From positions 80,206 to 144,205 of the forward strand of contig JBDHWW010000003.1 of the NCBI GenBank assembly GCA_039810425.1: 64,000 bases of DNA, written 5' to 3'. This document shows positions 10,376 through 21,442 of this stretch, in pieces (position 1 is the stretch's first letter; each line of letters starts with the position of its first letter). A model generated the notes under the pieces. That model was not told the DNA's origin and did not search any database. It worked only from the letters and a program-made list of their open reading frames with translations. Position numbers and translations under genes: made by a program. The stretch comes from Pseudobdellovibrionaceae bacterium. GTDB lineage: Bacteria; Bdellovibrionota; Bdellovibrionia; Bdellovibrionales; Bdellovibrionaceae.

Positions 10376-10660
10376 TCAGGTATTTGCCTTGTCATAATTC
10401 ACTTTCAAAAACTTGGACTTAGGTTGAGCCATACATGTTTTAAATGTTCGATCCAATGAGTGTTCGTTCACTCGGCCTTCAATCGAATCGACTTCTCCCT
10501 GTTCAAGCAGCGCAGAGCATGTTCCACAAACTCCTTCCAAACAAGAGTAAGGCGGGTTTATTTGCAGTCTCAAGGCCGCCTCAAGGACAGATTGGTACTC
10601 CGTCATCGTGGCTTCATGCTCTTGACCGTTAATTATGAAAACTACTTTCACGTCAGACAT
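10376..10660 (-). CDS. 2Fe-2S ferredoxin
   Basis: PYSCLEGVCGTC...TC plant-type cluster motif. Confidence 0.9.
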   Translation of the reverse strand: MSDVKVVFIINGQEHEATMTEYQSVLEAALRLQINPPYSCLEGVCGTCSALLEQGEVDSIEGRVNEHSLDRTFKTCMAQPKSKFLKVNYDKANT

Positions 10661-11907
10661 TAGAATGAAAAGGCCGTACCCACGAGCATTGTAAACACGT
10701 GCTGAGTTACGACCACCTCCTCTGTTGTTTGATTGATTTGCTGAATCGATTTGCCCCGACCGCCAGTGTAGTAACCACCAAACGTATAGTCGATTTTATC
10801 TCCGGACGTAAACGCCAAGTTCGCACTGAATCCAAGTTGGTCCACCTTATCCGGTTGGGCGCCCGCGATTGTCGCATCCGGATTGGGATGTGATGAGAAG
10901 TTCGTGAATGCGCCCATACGTACTTTCAACCAAGGCATCACTCGCTTCTCGACTCCCGCCGAGACATTCCAAATTGCCCGATGCTTCCAATGAGTCGCAA
11001 GGGCTGGATCGTTAAAATCGTTGTACTCCATGGCTTGATAAAGACTCGCATCGGCTGACACGTTTAGATCTTCGCTTTCATGATAAGCCACCCCGATAGA
11101 AAGCTTGCCGGGAATATTCACATTAGTCTTTTCATCCGGACGATTCACCGTAGTGACCGTGTAAGGATTGGTATCAACCTTCGAAGAAAAATAAGAACCG
11201 CTGCCTTTCACCGTCAGATTCGGTGTCCGTAAACTGGTACCGAAAGACCATTTATCCGACAATTTCCAGTGATACCCAAGAATCGCAACAATGGCATTTT
11301 CGACCAAGGTTTTCTCTGAGCTGAACAACACCGCTTCGCTGGCCGTTGGGAAACTGCTGTCATTCAGCGAACGCGTATAGCTTCGCGCGGTGTAATACAT
11401 CGTCAACCCCAAAGACTCAGTGTCTGAGATCGGCTTTGCCACCGCAGCGCCGACCCACAAAGACTCATCGACGTAAGCCAACGTCGTGGTATTTTCAGTA
11501 CTGGCACGCAAGTCGCCCTTGTAGTTATCAAAATCAGGAACCACGATCGAAAATGCGATCGTATAGCCCGCCCGGCGAATCACACTGCCGGTGGAGGAGG
11601 GGATCGCGCGAAAGAAACCCTGATTGATTCGCAGAGGCGCCTTTGTGAAGTCCTCTTCTTTGCCAAAGGTCGTATCAAATTTTTTGTAAATGCCCACGGC
11701 GGCTGAAAATGAATGCCCTTGCAAGAAGGCCAGCCCCGCGGGATTGTAATAAGCCAATGCCGACGCATCGCTAGTCATCGCGGTGTATGCTCCCCCCATC
11801 CCCGCCGCCTGATCGCCGATCAAAATGGAATTATAGTTTGAAAAGGCCGCCGTCGCTGGCTGGACCAAAACTAAGAGCAATAAACCGCTGAAGTATTTTA
11901 ATGACAT
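10660..11907 (-). CDS. FadL/OmpP1-like outer-membrane transporter
   Basis: Signal peptide, GMGGA..A...DAS...YNPAGL hatch motif, C-terminal Phe. Confidence 0.85.
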   Translation of the reverse strand: MSLKYFSGLLLLVLVQPATAAFSNYNSILIGDQAAGMGGAYTAMTSDASALAYYNPAGLAFLQGHSFSAAVGIYKKFDTTFGKEEDFTKAPLRINQGFFRAIPSSTGSVIRRAGYTIAFSIVVPDFDNYKGDLRASTENTTTLAYVDESLWVGAAVAKPISDTESLGLTMYYTARSYTRSLNDSSFPTASEAVLFSSEKTLVENAIVAILGYHWKLSDKWSFGTSLRTPNLTVKGSGSYFSSKVDTNPYTVTTVNRPDEKTNVNIPGKLSIGVAYHESEDLNVSADASLYQAMEYNDFNDPALATHWKHRAIWNVSAGVEKRVMPWLKVRMGAFTNFSSHPNPDATIAGAQPDKVDQLGFSANLAFTSGDKIDYTFGGYYTGGRGKSIQQINQTTEEVVVTQHVFTMLVGTAFSF

Positions 11908-11983
11908 TCCCTTGCGTCTCCACTAGCTAGTACTGCAAAATTAAATGATTATTGACGGCAAAAGTCCACCAGAAGGTTCTCCA

Positions 11984-13693
11984 ATGAACTCTCAAACTGC
12001 AAAAACATCTCCGCTTCGAACAGTTCTGAAAGAACTCGTGCTGCCTTATTGGACACGTTCGGAAGATCGCTGGCGCGCGCGCGGATTGTTGGCTCTCACT
12101 TTGGTGTTGATCGTCGGTATGGTTTACGCCCTAGTTCTACTGAATCGCTGGAATCAAGCGTTCTACGACGCCCTTCAGAACTTGAATAGAGAGGAGTTCA
12201 TCAGCCAGCTATGGCGTTTTTTCTTTATTGCGCTTTTTTACTCCGTGATCATGGCCTTGAAGTTCTATGTTTTGCAGAGCCTCGCCATCAACTGGCGTCA
12301 ATGGATCACCGAAAAAGGCCTGCACCGCTGGCTCAGCGACAAGAACTTCTATTATTGGCAATTCAGCGGACATGAACACGATAATCCCGATCAGCGCCTC
12401 TCTGAAGATATTCACGAACTCACCGACTTGAGCCTCGAAATCTCAGAGAAGGTGATCCGTGAGTTCATCACCTTTGTGTCGTTCATCGGCATTCTCTGGA
12501 GCCTTTCAGGCTCGGCCAAATTCACGGCGTTTGGTTATAACATTGAGCTTTATCGTTACCTTGTTTGGGTTTGCTTGCTTTACGCGGTGGTCGGGACTTT
12601 CATCGTTCACAAGATTGGTCATCCGCTTTCAAAACTCAACTTTATGCAGCAAAAACTCGAGGCGGATTTCCGTTACTTCTTGGTGCGCCTGCGTGAAAAC
12701 AGCGAAAATGTGGCTTTACTCAACGGCGAAAAAGCCGAACAGCAAAAGCTTTCGACCAAATTCTCCCAGGTCGTGGGTAATTTCAAAGCGCTGATCTCGC
12801 GCCAGAAGAAACTGATTCTAACGACGAATATTTACGGTCAGTTGGCTTATATCTTTCCGTTTGTGGTTGCGTCACCAAAAGTGTTCACCAAAGAGATCAC
12901 TCTGGGGCAGCTTTTCCAGATCAGCAGTGCCTTTGGCCAAGTGCAAGGGTCGGTCTCGGTGTTTGTGGATATGTATGCGAAGATCGCGCGACTGCATTCG
13001 GTCGCTCTGCGTTTGGGCGGATTCTTAGGTTTGCTCGAAGAAAATCACGGGCTTCGCGAAAAAGGCCTAAATGGAAAACTCCATGCAACAGAGGGCGCGG
13101 GTCTTTCCGCCGAAGATTTGCGGGTCCTAACGCCACAGCAGCAAACTTTGTTGACCGCCGTAAATCTAAAACTCACCCCAGGACAGAGCTTGCTAATCAC
13201 AGCTCCTTCGGGAAAAGGCAAAACCACCTTGCTTCGCACTCTGAACGGCATTTGGCCTTTCATTGACGGACAGATTCATCTGCCTCGTCACAGCCACCGT
13301 CTTGTGCTCACACAAAAAGCCTACTTACCGATCGGCACCCTGCGCGCGGCTCTGGCCTACCCGCTTTCCGCCGAAGCCTTCAGCGATCAAGACATGGTTA
13401 CAGCTTTGGCCGGCACGAAATTGAACTCACTCATTCAGCATCTTGATGACGAAGACTACTGGTCGCAACGTCTTTCTTCCGGCGAGCAACAGCGTTTGGC
13501 GCTGGCGCGTGCCTTCTTGCAAAAACCCGAAGTTTTGTTTTTAGACGAAGCCACTTCCGCCCTCGAAAAAGACACCGAAGCCGAGATCTACCAAGCTCTG
13601 ATAAAATCCTTCCCCAAGATGATTCTTATCAGCTTCAGTCACGAAGCTGGCCCTCTCGCGGCTTTCCACCAAAAAACTCTGGCATTGCTCTGA
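11984..13693 (+). CDS. Fused ABC transporter, ABC_membrane_2 (YddA/BclA/ABCD-like)
   Basis: DNPDQR, EADFRY, Walker A APSGKGKT, LSSGEQQR, LDEATSAL; track start 11945, alternative start 11984. Confidence 0.9.
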   Translation: MNSQTAKTSPLRTVLKELVLPYWTRSEDRWRARGLLALTLVLIVGMVYALVLLNRWNQAFYDALQNLNREEFISQLWRFFFIALFYSVIMALKFYVLQSLAINWRQWITEKGLHRWLSDKNFYYWQFSGHEHDNPDQRLSEDIHELTDLSLEISEKVIREFITFVSFIGILWSLSGSAKFTAFGYNIELYRYLVWVCLLYAVVGTFIVHKIGHPLSKLNFMQQKLEADFRYFLVRLRENSENVALLNGEKAEQQKLSTKFSQVVGNFKALISRQKKLILTTNIYGQLAYIFPFVVASPKVFTKEITLGQLFQISSAFGQVQGSVSVFVDMYAKIARLHSVALRLGGFLGLLEENHGLREKGLNGKLHATEGAGLSAEDLRVLTPQQQTLLTAVNLKLTPGQSLLITAPSGKGKTTLLRTLNGIWPFIDGQIHLPRHSHRLVLTQKAYLPIGTLRAALAYPLSAEAFSDQDMVTALAGTKLNSLIQHLDDEDYWSQRLSSGEQQRLALARAFLQKPEVLFLDEATSALEKDTEAEIYQALIKSFPKMILISFSHEAGPLAAFHQKTLALL

Positions 13694-13812: not shown

Positions 13813-14031
13813 CTAACGGAGACGACCGAGGGTCACGCCTGTCTCTTTGGCGATGAGGGCGGCGGAAATTTTCGCAACTCCCCCACCGAAACTCCTACCC
13901 AGCAAAATACAATCTGGCCGGCGCCCCTGCCACTCGGATGCCAAGAACTTTCCGGTACGATAAAGGCCTGACTGAATCTCATCACAAATCATCGGAATAT
14001 GGCGCGGTTTAAAAAGAAACCCGACTTTCAC
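13813..14031 (-). pseudogene. Fragment of class III PLP-dependent aminotransferase
   Basis: ICDEIQSGLYRTGKFLASEW...PDCILLGRSFGGG matches the DE(I/V)QxGxGRTG...PD...GKxxGGG signature; only ~50 aa; catalytic Lys position is Arg. Confidence 0.75.
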
Positions 14032-14343
14032 CGATCATGCTTTGGCTCGGAGATCATGGCGATTTCCAGACTTTGCTAGCCGTGCCTGAAAAAATCTCCG
14101 CGAGCTCCCAAGTGGACGCTTTTCCGTGATTGGGCCGCTGGCAAAGCAAAGAACACTATTCGCCTTCGAGCGCCTCATCGAGTCCGTGCAAGAGTTTAAA
14201 AAATCAAATTTGAAGGCCGAAGTCTTCGACAAAGAGGTAATAGTTACATTGTGCCCCTACACGGGGTTCTGGCGCCAAGTTTGATACTTTATTCTAACTA
14301 CTTATTTTTACTTGTCTTTTAAGCGTGGTGGCAAAATAAAAAT

Positions 14344-14359
14344 TGGCCCTTGAATTGCA
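14344..14359 (+). promoter_or_regulatory. sigma54 (-24/-12) promoter of the rSAM-peptide-HK-RR operon
   Basis: TGGCCC-TTGAA-TTGCA, one mismatch from TGGCAC-N5-TTGCW with correct spacing. Confidence 0.75.
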
Positions 14360-14424
14360 TATTTTTAGCCTTGGAAGTGGATGGTGACATAAGGTCACCA
14401 GTTGGCCACTATTGGGGACGACTC

Positions 14425-15732
14425 ATGGAACTACGACGCTACAAAGACATCCTAGCGCTAAAATCAGAAGAGGGCACTCTTCTGGCGTTTCATTCGCGCA
14501 ACATGGAGGTCGCTCAAATCTCAGAAAGCGCCTGGGTGAACATGAACCCAACAACGTTGCTGAATTCGAACCCTTCGAAGGTTGTGCTCCAAGAATGCGA
14601 AGCCCTCGAAGAGCTCAAAACTTGGAACCAGGAAGACAACGCTCAGGTTAAAACCAGCAAGATCAGCAACAACATCCGCTTTCTTACAATCAACGTGACT
14701 CAAATCTGCAACCTCCACTGCTCCTACTGCGCGGCGGGCGGCGACGGTACGTTCGGCGATAGCATCGCCAAAATCTCTATCGAAAAAACCTTACCGCAGA
14801 TCAAGTTCTTCCTCGATCGTTTGCCACAAGGCTTAAGCTTCAACGTAAGCTTCCTCGGTGGCGAGCCTTTGCTTTATGCTGAAGGCCTCGAGATGATTGC
14901 GAAATATATTGCTGACATCGCCCCTGAACGCAGCGTGAATTACACGATCATCACGAACGGCACATTGCTGACGGACAAAAATGTTGATTTGCTGGCACGC
15001 ATGAAAGCCACCGTGACGATCAGCCTTGACGGTCCTGCGGAGATCAACGATCGCATGCGTCCGACCAAGAACGGAACTTCATCAACGGCGATGATCGTGA
15101 AAGGCCTTGAAAAAGTCCTCGCACGCAAATCAGAATTCAGCCACGTGATGATTCACGGAGTTTTCGATAGCCAAAACATGGCGCTTGTGAAAGCTTACGA
15201 GTTCTATTCCCAATTCAACGTGGACAGCTATGATTTTTCATTCTCGGTTTCTGACAACAATCCCCGCGCGACTCAAGAGTACATGGAACAAATGACTCAA
15301 GTCGCCGCGCTGGCTTACGCTCAAGGTGGCGAGAGGGCTCTCAGAAAGATCCGCGCGTTTGAACAGCATTTTCAGTCGTTGGACCAACAACGCCGTACCG
15401 AAAACTATTGCGGCGCCGGCAAGTCCTTCTTGATGATTGATGCCCGCAATCAGATCTACACCTGCCCTTGGGATGTGAATGAAAAGAAAGAGCAAGTTGG
15501 CCAAGGAACAGAGTTAAGCGAAAAGGCTTTGGAAGCGTACCAAAAGCCGATTCTCGAACAGAACAAATGTGAAACCTGCTGGGCGCGATTCCTATGCGGC
15601 GGCGGCTGTATGTTCGCCCATAAGCATGGCTCAGGATCTAAGAACGTTAAAAATACGCTGTTTTGCGAAAGAACAAGATTTATGGTAGCGCTGGCATTGA
15701 TCTACTATGAGCGATGCCGAAGCGCCGCCTGA
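14425..15732 (+). CDS. Radical SAM/SPASM peptide maturase (CteB/PapB/QhpD-like) with RRE-like N-terminus
   Basis: CNLHCSYC; GGEP; SPASM CGAG...YTC...CETCWARFLCGGGC...FC; start ATG 14425 after GGGGA RBS. Confidence 0.9.
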   Translation: MELRRYKDILALKSEEGTLLAFHSRNMEVAQISESAWVNMNPTTLLNSNPSKVVLQECEALEELKTWNQEDNAQVKTSKISNNIRFLTINVTQICNLHCSYCAAGGDGTFGDSIAKISIEKTLPQIKFFLDRLPQGLSFNVSFLGGEPLLYAEGLEMIAKYIADIAPERSVNYTIITNGTLLTDKNVDLLARMKATVTISLDGPAEINDRMRPTKNGTSSTAMIVKGLEKVLARKSEFSHVMIHGVFDSQNMALVKAYEFYSQFNVDSYDFSFSVSDNNPRATQEYMEQMTQVAALAYAQGGERALRKIRAFEQHFQSLDQQRRTENYCGAGKSFLMIDARNQIYTCPWDVNEKKEQVGQGTELSEKALEAYQKPILEQNKCETCWARFLCGGGCMFAHKHGSGSKNVKNTLFCERTRFMVALALIYYERCRSAA

Positions 15733-15763
15733 ACCACAACCACCAGGACATGATGGAGCAATA

Positions 15764-15931
15764 ATGATGAAATTCCTAACTCTACTAAAGGAAAAGATGA
15801 TGGAAAAAATAGAGAAAAAACACATTAAGAAGCTGAAGCCACAAACATCTCAGCCTTCGCATTTTGGGCCTGGTAACGGCGGCAATCCGTGCCCTCCAGT
15901 CGGTGGCGATATTATGGTACCAAACAACTAG
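15764..15931 (+). CDS. Putative RiPP precursor peptide (55 aa, or 44 aa from ATG 15797)
   Basis: MMKFLTLLKEKMMEKIEKKHIKKLKPQTSQPSHFGPGNGGNPCPPVGGDIMVPNN; GGAG RBS at 15755 and AAGGA before 15797; fills the gap between maturase and kinase. Confidence 0.7.
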   Translation: MMKFLTLLKEKMMEKIEKKHIKKLKPQTSQPSHFGPGNGGNPCPPVGGDIMVPNN

Positions 15932-15950: not shown

Positions 15951-17828
15951 ATGGCACTTCCTCCTTCGCAGACTAAAACAAAAGGCCCTTTCAAAGGTGG
16001 AATCTTGTATTCCGTCTTGCGCCTTGTTTTGGCTTGCGCGATGGGCGTTTTCATCAGTCAGCTCAAACTCGATTCTTGGGAATCCATGCTCTACGACATG
16101 CGCGTTCGCTTGTTGCCGGAGCCCGCTCCTTCGGGTCAGATTGAAATGATTTTGACCACATCGCGGACGGTAGAAACCCTCAAAGGGATTCCTACTGCGA
16201 AGGAGCAATTGGAACTCCTTAAGAACCTCGAACGCGAAGAGCCTCTGGCGGTTCTTTACATCCAAAACCTCGGCGAGCTTGAAGGAAGTGCTGAAGAAAA
16301 AAAAGCCTTCGCCGCTGAAGCTTTGAAGCTCAACAACCTGTACATGGCCAGCCAGGATCTTGAAATGAAAGGCGAAGAGGGAAAGCTCCGCCTGGCGGAG
16401 CCACTCAATACGATTGAACTCTTCCCCGGCCCACGCACCAGTGATGGCGATGTGCTTGCCCAGGATAAGGTGACCCGTCGTATGATGATCACTTACCAAG
16501 ACCGCCAGATGATTCACCCCTTTATTGCCAGCCTTGTGAATCCTGAAGTTTCCAAAAAGGAAAATATCCGCGGTCTGTTTGAGTTCTTTGACTCTGAACA
16601 GGTATATATCAGTTACCGCAAAGCTGACACGTATCCAATGACGGCATTTGAAGACGTCATGGATAAACGTTTTGAACCGGGTCACTTTAAAAACAAAATC
16701 GTTCTGATCGGTAACGATCACGGCGGCTCCGTGCGTGACTACGTGAAGACGCCATTTTCCAAAGACGCGAAGGCCATGACCCTCGTGGAACTTCACGCCA
16801 ATATGCTTGATACTTTGATTCAAAATAAAGCGCCGATTCAGGCGGCCCCCTGGTTGAACGTATTGGTGACGATACTAACGTCCATCATCACCGTTTACGT
16901 TCTCTTCACAATGAAACCAATTCGAAGTCTCACGATTCTGGCGGCGACCGGCGGTGCCTTACTCGTATTCAGTGCGATCGCTTTCTGGCCCATCGGCTAT
17001 TGGGTGAAGATGGCGCATCCCTTCCTGGCGATCTTCTTGTGCTATTACTTCTTTATCCCCTACCGCTTGATCATCGAAAATCGTCGCAGTTGGGAATACT
17101 ACCAGAAAAATAAGCTGCTTTCCCAAGTTGAGGAACTCAAAGGCAACTTCATTTCGATGATGTCGCACGATTTAAAAACGCCGATTGCCCGTATTCAAGG
17201 CATGACCGATGTGATTCTCAAGGACCAACAACCCTTGAGCACCCAGCAACGCGAAGCCGTGGATACGATCCGTCATTCCGGTGACGATCTTTTGCGGTTC
17301 ATCAATGCGATTTTGAACTACGGTAAGATCGAGAGCCAAGGGGTCCAACTGCATATGCAAAGTCGGGACGTTAATTCATTGCTGAAAGACGTTATCCATA
17401 AGCATGAGTTCCTGGCTAAGGTAAAACGTATTCCGATTAAGTTTGAATCCGAGCCTTTATTTCCGATCCAGGTGGACCCCGAGCTCATGAAGCAAGTGTT
17501 CTCGAACCTTATAGAGAACGCCATTAAGTACAGCCCTGAGGAATCTCAGGTGCAGGTTCACAGCGAAGAGGTTAACGGCAAAGTGATCGTTCGCGTCCAA
17601 GACAGCGGACCTGGAATTCCAGAGGACGAAGTGAGCAACATTTTTATGAAGTTTTTTAGAAGCAAGAATGCGAAAAGTTCTCCGATTAAAGGATCGGGAC
17701 TCGGGTTGTACCTTGCTAAATATTTTACAGAATTGCACCAGGGCAGAATCTTTGTTGAAAGTACCTATGGAAAAGGATGTACTTTTACTGTAGAACTGCC
17801 TCTGGAACAGGGGAGGTCACATGCTTAG
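15951..17828 (+). CDS. CHASE2-domain sensor histidine kinase
   Basis: N-terminal TM, CHASE2 signatures (DKVTRR, FKNKIVLIG, VELHAN), 3 TMs, H-box SHDLKTP, NLIENAIKY, DSGPGI, GSGLGL. Confidence 0.93.
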   Translation: MALPPSQTKTKGPFKGGILYSVLRLVLACAMGVFISQLKLDSWESMLYDMRVRLLPEPAPSGQIEMILTTSRTVETLKGIPTAKEQLELLKNLEREEPLAVLYIQNLGELEGSAEEKKAFAAEALKLNNLYMASQDLEMKGEEGKLRLAEPLNTIELFPGPRTSDGDVLAQDKVTRRMMITYQDRQMIHPFIASLVNPEVSKKENIRGLFEFFDSEQVYISYRKADTYPMTAFEDVMDKRFEPGHFKNKIVLIGNDHGGSVRDYVKTPFSKDAKAMTLVELHANMLDTLIQNKAPIQAAPWLNVLVTILTSIITVYVLFTMKPIRSLTILAATGGALLVFSAIAFWPIGYWVKMAHPFLAIFLCYYFFIPYRLIIENRRSWEYYQKNKLLSQVEELKGNFISMMSHDLKTPIARIQGMTDVILKDQQPLSTQQREAVDTIRHSGDDLLRFINAILNYGKIESQGVQLHMQSRDVNSLLKDVIHKHEFLAKVKRIPIKFESEPLFPIQVDPELMKQVFSNLIENAIKYSPEESQVQVHSEEVNGKVIVRVQDSGPGIPEDEVSNIFMKFFRSKNAKSSPIKGSGLGLYLAKYFTELHQGRIFVESTYGKGCTFTVELPLEQGRSHA

Positions 17829-19353
17829 AGTTTTGGTGGTCGATGATGATCAGGGATTAAGACTCTCAGTCAAAACAGCGCTCACGACGTCGAATCGTTT
17901 TGAAGTTGAAGAGGCCTTTGACGGCCTGAATGCCATCGAGAAAGTAAAGGCACCTGAGAACTCAGGCGTAAAGAAGTTCGATGTTGTTATTCTTGATGTC
18001 GACATGCCACGTATCAACGGTCTGGAAGCACTCAGACTGATCAAAGAACATGATCCAGGAATCATCGTATTGATGATCACGGCCCATGCAACTTTAGACC
18101 ATGCGGTTCAAGCGGTCAAAGACGGCGCTTACAACTATCTTTCAAAACCTGTTTCCGGCGATGAACTCTTGGCCCTGGTGGATAAAGCAGTTTCCGCGCA
18201 CACGATGATTTCAAACATCGCGGCATCGGCACCCGTGCTGGTGGAAGCGGGACGCAAGATTATCGGTAACACCCAGCAAATGCAGAAAGTTTTCAACATC
18301 ATTCACCGTCTGGCGAAGGTTGATACTCCCGTGTTGATTCGCGGCGCTTCTGGTTCTGGTAAAGAACTCGTTGCGAAAGCGATCCACTACAATTCTGCCC
18401 GTAAGGATGAAAAGTTCGTGGCCATCAACTGTTCTGCGATCCCGGAGAACTTGTTTGAATCAGAACTCTTCGGTCACGAAAAGGGTTCTTTCACTGGCGC
18501 GGATCAGCGCAAAATTGGTAAGTTCCAGTTTGCGGAAGGCGGAACATTGTTCTTGGATGAAGTAGGCGATATGCCACTCATGATGCAAGTTAAGATCTTG
18601 CGCGTCCTCCAAGAGAAAATGTTCACCCCGGTGGGTTCAAACCGCGAGATTTCAACAAACGTAAGAATCGTGGCGGCGACAAACCGTCCTTTGGAAGACA
18701 TGATCAAGGCCGGCACGTTCCGCGAAGACTTGTTCTATCGCTTGAATGTGGTCCCTATCTTCTTGCCCGCTTTGGCTGACCGCAAAGACGACATCGAGAA
18801 CTTGATCAACATCTTCATCAAAAAGTTCAATGCAGCTCATGGCAAACGCATCTCTGGTGTGGCTCCAGATGCTTTGTCAGCGCTCAAGAAATACCAATGG
18901 CCGGGCAACATCCGTGAGTTGGAAAATGTGATTGAACATGCTTTCGTTCTTGAGACCCACAACATGATCACATTGGCGTCACTCCCAGAAGCGGTTTTGG
19001 CCGCAGCGGGTGTAAACTTGATTGATGCGTTGGCTCAGCCTGCGGTTGTTGATACGAAAGCGGCGGCTTCTATGTCCACAGACCTCGGTGACGATGAGGA
19101 TTTAGGCGTTGTTGATAGCGAAGACCTCGCGTTGGACAATGACGAAGGCGAAGTTGCAACTGTTTCTATTTCAGCTGGCAGCCTCGATTTTAACGCCCAA
19201 AAGGAAGCTTTCGAGAAAGAGTTCATCATCAAGGCTCTGAAGACCTTTAAAGGCCGCATCAACCAAACGGCTTTGCATGCTAACATTCCAAAGAAGACCC
19301 TGCTCCGCAAGATCGAAAAATATGGAATCATCGCAAAGGATTACTCTGTTTAA
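17821..19353 (+). CDS. NtrC-family sigma54-dependent response regulator (REC-AAA+-Fis HTH)
   Basis: VVDDD/LDVDMP receiver, GASGSGKE, ESELFGHEKGSFTGA, LDEVG, WPGNIREL, C-terminal HTH; overlaps HK stop. Confidence 0.95.
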   Translation: MLRVLVVDDDQGLRLSVKTALTTSNRFEVEEAFDGLNAIEKVKAPENSGVKKFDVVILDVDMPRINGLEALRLIKEHDPGIIVLMITAHATLDHAVQAVKDGAYNYLSKPVSGDELLALVDKAVSAHTMISNIAASAPVLVEAGRKIIGNTQQMQKVFNIIHRLAKVDTPVLIRGASGSGKELVAKAIHYNSARKDEKFVAINCSAIPENLFESELFGHEKGSFTGADQRKIGKFQFAEGGTLFLDEVGDMPLMMQVKILRVLQEKMFTPVGSNREISTNVRIVAATNRPLEDMIKAGTFREDLFYRLNVVPIFLPALADRKDDIENLINIFIKKFNAAHGKRISGVAPDALSALKKYQWPGNIRELENVIEHAFVLETHNMITLASLPEAVLAAAGVNLIDALAQPAVVDTKAAASMSTDLGDDEDLGVVDSEDLALDNDEGEVATVSISAGSLDFNAQKEAFEKEFIIKALKTFKGRINQTALHANIPKKTLLRKIEKYGIIAKDYSV

Positions 19354-20956: not shown

Positions 20957-21442
20957 ATGACGATGAACCCCCTACCACCTCAGGCATATACCAAGGACAC
21001 GCTGACAAAAGCCTACATGTGGCTTGTGCATCAGAGTGACGCTATCAAGGAGCTCGCGACGACTCCTGATATTTTGGTCAGTCTTTTTCTCAAGGCGCAA
21101 CGGAACGGGGATGAAGCCCTGGAGACTCCGAGCATCCAAAATTTCAAAAAAGAGCTTAAAAGTTTAGCAGGTATGATGGGCGAACTCGACGGTGGCAAAC
21201 CTGCGCCCGCCGTTTTTACCCAGCCTCCGCCCCAAACCGCTCCGCAGGTTGTCGTTCAACAAACTAAACAGGTAAATATCCAGAATAATCATATGCCTAT
21301 GGATCTGGCTGGACAGATGGATGCAAAAAGCCGCGCGATGATTGCCGAAGTCCGCGAACAGTTAAATTTGAGTTCAGACCTCGAAGTCATCCGCCTTTTG
21401 GTCTCATTGGGCTATCACAAAGCCAAAAACCTCTATTCTTAA
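20957..21442 (+). CDS. Hypothetical protein with two small domains joined by a Pro/Gln linker
   Basis: 161-aa ORF with coding-like composition; C-terminal helix pair resembles a ribbon-helix-helix tail. Confidence 0.75.
   Translation: MTMNPLPPQAYTKDTLTKAYMWLVHQSDAIKELATTPDILVSLFLKAQRNGDEALETPSIQNFKKELKSLAGMMGELDGGKPAPAVFTQPPPQTAPQVVVQQTKQVNIQNNHMPMDLAGQMDAKSRAMIAEVREQLNLSSDLEVIRLLVSLGYHKAKNLYS

Follow-up and report, generated by a model that had tools for sequence, protein, structure and literature searches.

What does the short open reading frame between a radical SAM enzyme gene and a sensor kinase gene encode in Bdellovibrio-type predators, and if it encodes the precursor of a modified peptide, which residues would the modification involve and what would the product be for? 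The window analysed here is the whole stretch of 64,000 nucleotides from a Pseudobdellovibrionaceae bacterium (contig JBDHWW010000003.1, positions 80,206 to 144,205 of the forward strand). A preliminary description had proposed that positions 15764 to 15931 of the window encode an easily missed precursor peptide with a ranthipeptide-type KHIK leader and a core carrying one Cys. The genes and peptide motifs concerned are the following.

14425..15732, plus strand: radical SAM/SPASM peptide maturase of 435 aa (Pfam Radical_SAM; RRE-like N-terminus, CxxxCxxC, seven-Cys SPASM)
15764..15931, plus strand: precursor peptide gene; product of 55 aa with the start at 15764, of 44 aa with 15797 or of 43 aa with 15800
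15815..15841, plus strand: leader motif K18-K-H-I-K-K-L-K-P26 (conservation in 84 peptides; contacts in the predicted complex)
15881..15904, plus strand: core motif G40-N-P-C43-P-P45-V-G47 (family pattern G-x-x-C-x-P-x-G/R/K)
15951..17828, plus strand: sensor histidine kinase with CHASE2 (6.8e-23), HisKA and HATPase domains
17821..19353, plus strand: NtrC-type response regulator and sigma-54 activator with REC, AAA+ Sigma54_activat and HTH_8 domains

The small gene is real, and it encodes a one-Cys precursor peptide between the radical SAM enzyme and the membrane sensor kinase of Bdellovibrio-type predators. A gap of 31 bases separates the stop of the enzyme gene from the peptide ORF, and a further 20 bases separate the end of the ORF from the CHASE2 histidine kinase gene. 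Translation of 15707-15931 on the plus strand gives MSDAEAPPEPQPPGHDGAIMMKFLTLLKEKMMEKIEKKHIKKLKPQTSQPSHFGPGNGGNPCPPVGGDIMVPNN followed by the stop, and the peptide is as first described: the sequence, the single Cys (C43 in the 55-aa form), the C-X5-D spacing, the His-Phe pair and the two GG pairs all lie where they had been placed. Neither the alignment of homologs nor codon bias decides between 15764 and 15797, the two starts considered originally, and the best conserved ATG is the one at 15800, which is invariant in all 12 aligned sequences and present in 7/7 loci of the genus. The ATG at 15764 is found in 6/7 genus loci and has GGAG five bases upstream, and another in-frame ATG at 15707 overlaps the enzyme gene in a region that is not conserved. 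In the codon-position test the N-terminal extension displays a weak third-position bias only (e.g. 6/3/6 and 8/8/12). Peptide residues 1-17 make no confident contact with the enzyme in the predicted complex discussed below, which fits a short start at 15797 or 15800, and the short start is also the one kept in all members of the genus.

We find the same kind of gene in the same place across the order. By eye, a small ORF with the same two motifs directly follows the enzyme gene in all 20 of the related loci fetched initially, and in 93 of the 100 Bdellovibrionales loci fetched altogether, pooled from two sets with about ten places common to both, the family profile finds a look-alike ORF immediately behind the radical SAM/SPASM ortholog; the conservation downstream of orthologous radical SAM genes on which the preliminary description had made its proposal depend is present. 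Four of the seven loci without a peptide call have at most 138 bases after the enzyme gene, weaker look-alikes are present in two others that the profile misses (L069 and L077), and no peptide was seen in L083, another profile miss in which the enzyme alignment ends early. Of the 1070 same-strand ORFs that lie in the gap following the enzyme gene, 93 score above 10 bits with the profile, compared with 3 among the 46,998 remaining ORFs of these loci; the test is partly circular because the profile seeds were chosen by a motif regular expression and some contained read-through of the enzyme gene. In a large protein database, 11 of 11 candidate proteins are 71-93% identical to the peptide.

The coding signals point the same way. 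Substitutions within the genus fall mostly on third codon positions of the motif region (e.g. 2/0/9), and Shine-Dalgarno-like 4-mers stand before the start codons of 53 of 72 family members, compared with 69 of 720 random ATGs. The gene is single-copy in its own genome (E 2.3e-10, next best E at least 1), where a search for second copies found none. Two other loci, L012 and L094, carry two tandem peptide genes, each with its own leader motif and C-x-P core. One metatranscriptome run (X12) contains a 213-base contig identical to 15693-15905, which we regard as a weak hint that the peptide gene is transcribed, as RNA libraries can contain DNA; two further runs (X4 and X5), whose RNA label is a guess only, yielded contigs that cover parts of the enzyme gene, or unrelated contigs, and stretches lacking such coverage carry no information on transcription.

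The enzyme is detected at E <= 1e-20 in 26 of 41 related genomes and at E <= 1e-60 in 26 of 201 genomes of a phylum-wide sample. The latter sample gives 20/20 genomes in the window's family and 3/12, 1/1 and 1/14 in three other families, with none in the rest of those searched, so that the cassette is in every sampled core-family genome of this set and in 22 of 24 genomes of the same family in the former. For the comparison of loci we used the best 80 of 524 relatives from a scan of species-representative genomes, and their titles read Bdellovibrio, Pseudobdellovibrionaceae, Bdellovibrionales and the like, with the exception of one contig labelled Streptomyces. This contig (L077, titled Streptomyces griseus) carries a full Bdellovibrio-type cassette with its flanks and is probably mis-binned. 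Two of the loci with the cassette (L033 and L037) represent Bdellovibrio bacteriovorus, a species available as a cultured laboratory strain. The genes of this peptide family, at 27-76 aa, are easily missed in annotation.

Conservation within the peptide was counted over 84 distinct sequences. The leader carries the motif K-H-I-K-K-V-K-P, with K in 53, H in 64, I in 72, K in 70, K in 66, V/I/L in 74, K in 51 and P in 57 of the 84, and the KHIK-type string that had been singled out in the window thus turns out to be a conserved leader element. The linker from the leader His to the Cys is variable, at 11-41 residues. Exactly one Cys follows the leader in 83/84 peptides, so that the single Cys of the window is the rule of the family; Pro stands at +2 from it in 82/84 and Gly at -3 in 55/84. 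Position -1 is a small residue (G in 34/84), +1 is often I (35/84), +3 is V, T or L, and +4 is G in 40/84, R in 11/84, K in 10/84 and D in 3/84. From these motif counts we conclude that the conserved target is C-x-P and not C-X5-D. The 84 peptides show no conserved acceptor side chain close to the Cys, which means that a bond from this Cys would go to a backbone carbon, to the Pro or to variable residues.

A small gene beside a maturase gene, a conserved N-terminal motif, a variable linker and a short core are the features of precursors in RRE-dependent RiPP systems, and all are present here, in agreement with the proposal of a precursor-type peptide for the adjacent SPASM enzyme. The further details proposed for this peptide are not family traits: the His-Phe pair, suggested as a cross-linking site, occurs in 3/84 peptides, and the GG sites are not conserved across the family. 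Homology to known leaders is likewise not supported. SCIFF precursors start with MKHIK and QhpC leaders with MKHLK, but the NCBIfam SCIFF precursor model (TIGR03973) gives no match to the window's peptide up to E = 10 and matches only one of 37 family peptides (E = 0.1). Pfam and NCBIfam contain no curated family that matches the peptide, no PDB chain matched the peptide profile, and a literature search with the string MKHIK returned unrelated papers only. The conserved C-x-P, the sigma-54 promoter and the fixed linkage to a CHASE2 kinase and a sigma-54 activator are absent from the preliminary description.

The enzyme gene starts at MELRR and not at an upstream TTG, as judged by the alignment of homologs, and its product has ten invariant cysteines, three in the CxxxCxxC motif (C95, C99, C102) and seven in the SPASM region (C329, C347, C382, C385, C391, C395, C414). 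It belongs to no curated family, because all NCBIfam matches score far below their cut-offs: 161.7 against 518.7 for nif11-rSAM, 161.6 against 340 for PapB (2.6e-47), 139 against 425 for the SCIFF maturase (TIGR03974) and 88.7 against 349.45 for the anaerobic sulfatase-maturating enzyme anSME (TIGR03942, 3.9e-25). Among solved proteins, the enzyme profile matches the SCIFF maturase CteB best (E 5.2e-45; anSME, 3.3e-14), and the AlphaFold model (pLDDT 85.9) agrees: Foldseek places CteB on top with a TM score of 0.76 over the full length, including the N-terminal domain, followed by ChlB, TigE and anSME (TM 0.64). The alignment with anSME begins at profile position 94, and the anSME chains do not cover the N-terminal leader-binding domain. 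Where anSME has C-x5-C-x-C, the window's enzyme and CteB have one Cys, and after the second SPASM Cys the enzyme family has an invariant Pro in place of Asp277 of anSME. We take this Asp277 to be the catalytic base of anSME. PMC5715301 gives Cys as all eight auxiliary-cluster ligands of anSME. According to PMC8326336, one auxiliary cluster of CteB has an open iron site, which contacted the Cys of a substrate, and the RRE of CteB takes up the leader as a beta strand. From its cysteine layout, the window's enzyme would likewise leave one auxiliary iron open.

The predicted enzyme-peptide complex is consistent with leader recognition of the CteB kind. Built on our own alignments, the prediction scored 0.85, 0.86 and 0.85, against 0.04 for the best of three controls, and the mark used for such scores is reached by 116 of 157 solved complexes and by 2 of 215 mismatched pairs. 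At least 32% of the contacts agree between runs, and the pLDDT of the partner is at least 53. The confident contacts join peptide residues 18-28 and 30-32 to enzyme residues 21, 28-36, 59-67, 317-322 and 428-433 only, and the docked part, KKHIKKLKPQT on the N-terminal domain, is the conserved leader motif; the prediction positions the leader and does not place the Cys. The N-terminal RRE-like domain is thus predicted to bind the leader, but the solved CteB-CteA complex (5wgg) exists, and the score may therefore partly reflect memory, so that the prediction would indicate a likeness of docking and not binding.

Taken as a whole, the locus is best explained as a RiPP-type system in which a precursor peptide, an upstream SPASM maturase and a small thioether ring belong to one sigma-54 operon, a reading that we consider probable. 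The ORF product would be a ribosomally made precursor and its maturase the radical SAM/SPASM enzyme encoded just upstream. In the in silico complex the leader KKHIKKLKP docks as an added strand on the RRE-like domain of the enzyme, as CteA does on CteB, and this docking would bring the core G-x-x-C-x-P, which is short and C-terminal, into the active site, where the invariant Cys may bind the open iron of the first auxiliary cluster and become joined by a single thioether to a nearby carbon, either of the backbone or of a residue within about three positions and not of the Asp at +6, giving a very small ring held by the invariant Pro. We infer the thioether from the enzyme's relatives only, and we rate at slightly under even the chance that the reaction takes place at the single Cys and closes one small thioether ring. 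The peptide, then, is a real precursor of an undescribed single-Cys "C-x-P" family, with a putative chemistry that most likely leads to a small thioether ring.

The ring that was proposed originally, a minimal ranthipeptide with one Cys43-Asp49 thioether or a ring to a nearby Asn in the manner of PapB or QhpD, is very improbable when the family is considered. Its Asp (D68) is conserved in at least 90% of 12 close sequences and is common in the window's genus, and PapB is one of the two best NCBIfam matches of the enzyme, although at less than half of its cut-off. Across the 84 peptides, C-X5-D is found in only 15 and any D or E after the Cys in 37, while 35 peptides stop four residues after the Cys; even within the genus one peptide (L003) ends in GCPPIGV and has no Asp. 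A ring to Asn fares no better, as Asn stands at -2 in only 11/84. The broader ranthipeptide idea survives in part, because the nearest solved relative of the enzyme is the SCIFF maturase CteB, whereas the C-X5-D ring and the homology of the leader to SCIFF are not supported. We regard as quite improbable that the enzyme acts like anSME and oxidises the Cys of C-x-P-x-(R/K/G) to formylglycine, leaving an aldehyde-bearing peptide. The sulfatase motif is C/S-x-P/A-x-R, and C-x-P is nearly universal here with R or K at +4 in 21/84; this reaction would not require a conserved acceptor residue, and anSME is a detectable relative. The enzyme is nonetheless much closer to CteB in sequence and in fold, it has an N-terminal leader-binding domain outside the anSME alignment, seven cluster Cys instead of eight and Pro at the site of Asp277, and the commonest residue at +4 in the peptides is Gly.

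Some other chemistry at the Cys-Pro pair, such as a bond from Cys to Pro or between two carbons, epimerisation, intermolecular cross-linking with a second peptide or with a protein, or the release of a small molecule derived from Cys-Pro in the manner of the PQQ and mycofactocin pathways, is improbable. In cofactor-type precursors the core lies at the extreme C-terminus and few residues are invariant, and in this family too only C and P are near-invariant and the core often ends the peptide, with the four-residue tail mentioned above; in addition, the enzyme falls in no curated family. The nearest characterised relatives, however, all make Cys thioethers, and no peptidase or further tailoring gene is conserved nearby. 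That the peptide is not a substrate of the enzyme at all, and is instead a small protein in its own right or an upstream ORF whose only role is to adjust how the kinase gene 20 bases further on is translated, is extremely unlikely. This explanation can draw on the three of five enzyme-less genomes, described below, in which the kinase and activator genes follow a sigma-54-like site without enzyme or Cys peptide, and on small ORFs, rich in Lys or in Gly/Asn/Pro, that precede the kinase gene there. Against it, amino acid motifs and not a mere open frame are kept across enzyme identities of 35-95%, the peptide gene is found only directly after the enzyme gene and was not seen in the three enzyme-less loci, and docking of the leader to the RRE is predicted with clean controls.

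Comparison with known systems sets the small-ring reading in context. The closest is SCIFF/thermocellin (CteA/CteB of Clostridia, a ranthipeptide system), since CteB is the best match of the enzyme in sequence and fold, including the RRE-like domain; the two have the seven-Cys SPASM layout at the same positions, the peptide gene lies beside the enzyme gene in both, and the short basic motif in the leader of the window's peptide is predicted to add to the RRE as a strand, as the leader does in CteB (PMC8326336). Unlike SCIFF, the window's family has one Cys and not six and no conserved Thr, Asp or Glu acceptor, its enzyme scores far below the SCIFF maturase cut-off, and it is found in aerobic Bdellovibrionales and not in Clostridia, in an operon fixed with a CHASE2 kinase and a sigma-54 activator. 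It also differs from the PapB ranthipeptides (C-X3-D/E), with G, R or K at +4 in 61/84. As described in PMC8326336, NxxcA/NxxcB of streptococci form a single beta-thioether with an acceptor three residues N-terminal to the Cys, and they resemble the window's family in having one Cys and one ring, with the conserved Gly of the family at that same position -3. The family has no conserved Asn at -3, however, and this likeness is one of layout, taken from the description and not from sequence. With anSME the family shares a SPASM enzyme and a Cys two residues before a Pro, and in part of the family C-x-P-x-R/K resembles the sulfatase motif, but the dedicated substrate is a small peptide and not a sulfatase, in addition to the weaker match, the cluster Cys count and the extra leader-binding domain noted above.

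The whole cassette appears to be read from one sigma-54 promoter, and the elements upstream of the enzyme gene are these.

14239..14253, plus strand: block AATAGTTACATTGTG, conserved in the genus (nearly invariant in 7 loci) and some 100 bases before the -24 element
14344..14359, plus strand: sigma-54 type -24/-12 promoter-like element TGGCCCTTGAATTGCA (pattern match; position conserved across loci)
14383..14399, plus strand: inverted repeat GGTGAC-ATAAG-GTCACC between the promoter and the enzyme start codon

The sigma-54 pattern is found 4 times in the window against 5.56 expected, which is at chance level, and for this reason only the conserved position of the site counts as evidence. In 82 of 90 distinct loci, a GG-N10-GC site with a score of at least 11 out of 15 is present in the 250 bases before the enzyme gene; such a site occurs in 215 of 1000 random pieces of 260 bases and, on the opposite strand, in 12 of the 90 loci. 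CTGGCCC-N5-TTGCAC is invariant in the genus. The block at 14239..14253 is a candidate binding site for the sigma-54 activator; a similar word stands at equal distance in L014 and L037, and no more than 9-10 of the 87 distinct upstream regions contain related words. The inverted repeat, a candidate 5' UTR hairpin or protein-binding site, is kept in the 7 genus loci as TG.CA-N4-G.C.C, and in L004 both of its sides have changed (TGTC/GACA for TGAC/GTCA). Downstream, the kinase has a first transmembrane segment (residues 17-38), a CHASE2 domain of about 260 aa that is predicted from hydropathy to be periplasmic, three more transmembrane segments and the HisKA and HATPase domains, and its gene overlaps the activator gene by 8 bases. 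Of 80 loci, 75 have the kinase gene downstream of the enzyme gene and 67 have the activator gene, with the shortfalls mostly at contig ends, so that peptide, kinase and regulator lie together in one operon preceded by the sigma-54 site. Because the genes for the enzyme, the peptide, the CHASE2 kinase and the sigma-54 activator would all be read from this one promoter, the cassette would activate itself once the kinase is stimulated, and the peptide may be the stimulus or an output only.

The kinase-activator unit can stand alone, which follows from three of the five enzyme-less genomes that we examined. Three genomes that are 98-100% complete (G019, G031 and G033) carry a full-length orthologous kinase (42-52% identity) and the activator, with a sigma-54-like site upstream, and their fetched flanks contain no enzyme gene and no peptide of the KHIKK/Cys type. 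As for the other two, the kinase match in G021 is cut by a contig end and G029 has a match at the level of a paralog only. The enzyme-peptide pair looks like a front module that was added to the kinase-activator unit. Among enzyme-less relatives, L101, L103 and L104 have small Cys-free ORFs between the sigma-54-like site and the kinase gene, that of L101 rich in Gly, Asn and Pro and those of L103 (with ...SKIKKEAVKKPK...) and L104 rich in Lys; these may represent the peptide in a decayed or unmodified form, or ORFs that arose by chance.

We know of no ligand for any member of the CHASE2 domain family, and the cassette offers a concrete candidate for the input or output of such a sensor. It is doubtful, but conceivable, that the modified one-Cys peptide is a self-made signal for the periplasmic CHASE2 domain of the co-encoded kinase, closing a sigma-54 positive-feedback loop. 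If this were true, a CHASE2 sensor would have an assigned ligand for the first time, and Bdellovibrio-type predators would have their first peptide signal between cells; the tail of the genus (GGD-x-x-x-x-NN) would be a lineage-specific dialect, and the neighbouring ABC transporter would be its carrier. The arrangement resembles the pheromone operons of the agr and com type in uniting a precursor and its modifying enzyme with a membrane histidine kinase and its response regulator in one self-activating unit, and it can be compared for its enzyme-plus-regulator unit with streptide, a radical SAM peptide linked to quorum sensing; SCIFF, too, is placed under 'quorum sensing' in PMC8326336. It differs from the agr and com types in that the sensor domain is CHASE2 and the output goes through sigma-54, that three genomes retain kinase and activator without the peptide, and that neither an exporter nor a leader peptidase is encoded in the locus: over the 80 loci no protease and no exporter is conserved, and the ABC transporter occurs in only two.

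Literature searches on Bdellovibrio with radical SAM or CHASE2, on single-Cys ranthipeptides or SCIFF, on Bdellovibrio ranthipeptides and on sigma-54 with histidine kinases returned no description of the cassette, and passages of PMC13642348 and PMC8692599 do not describe it. Bdellovibrio has long been studied as a model predator and is considered a possible living antibiotic. With one Cys and a core of about eight residues, the peptide would also be a minimal substrate for studying the choice of acceptor by CteB-like enzymes.

The wider flanks of the cassette are housekeeping genes (PBP1, an MBL-fold gene and IleRS). Upstream of the cassette in the window, 10660-13693 holds a gene for a FadL/PorV-like outer-membrane protein on the minus strand and a fused SbmA/BacA-type ABC transporter gene on the plus strand (11945-13693). 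We considered both as core parts of the cassette and rejected them as a genus-level insert, given that they are present in only 2 of 80 other loci; the pair could be a lineage-specific carrier for the longer peptide of the genus, or unrelated. The peptide variant of the window's genus combines the N-terminal extension, the core C-P-P-V-G-G-D with a 12-residue tail and this adjoining transporter. The transporter and enzyme genes are 730 bases apart, and between them lies a 72-aa ORF (13813-14031, minus strand) that matches only residues 215-273 of aminotransferases of the ornithine/acetylornithine type (4e-15) and looks like the remnant of a broken aminotransferase gene. On the other side, between the activator gene and IleRS, a 161-aa ORF (20957-21442, plus strand) has no Pfam or NCBIfam match, and its place is kept in 31 of 80 loci at more than half coverage and in more as partial matches.
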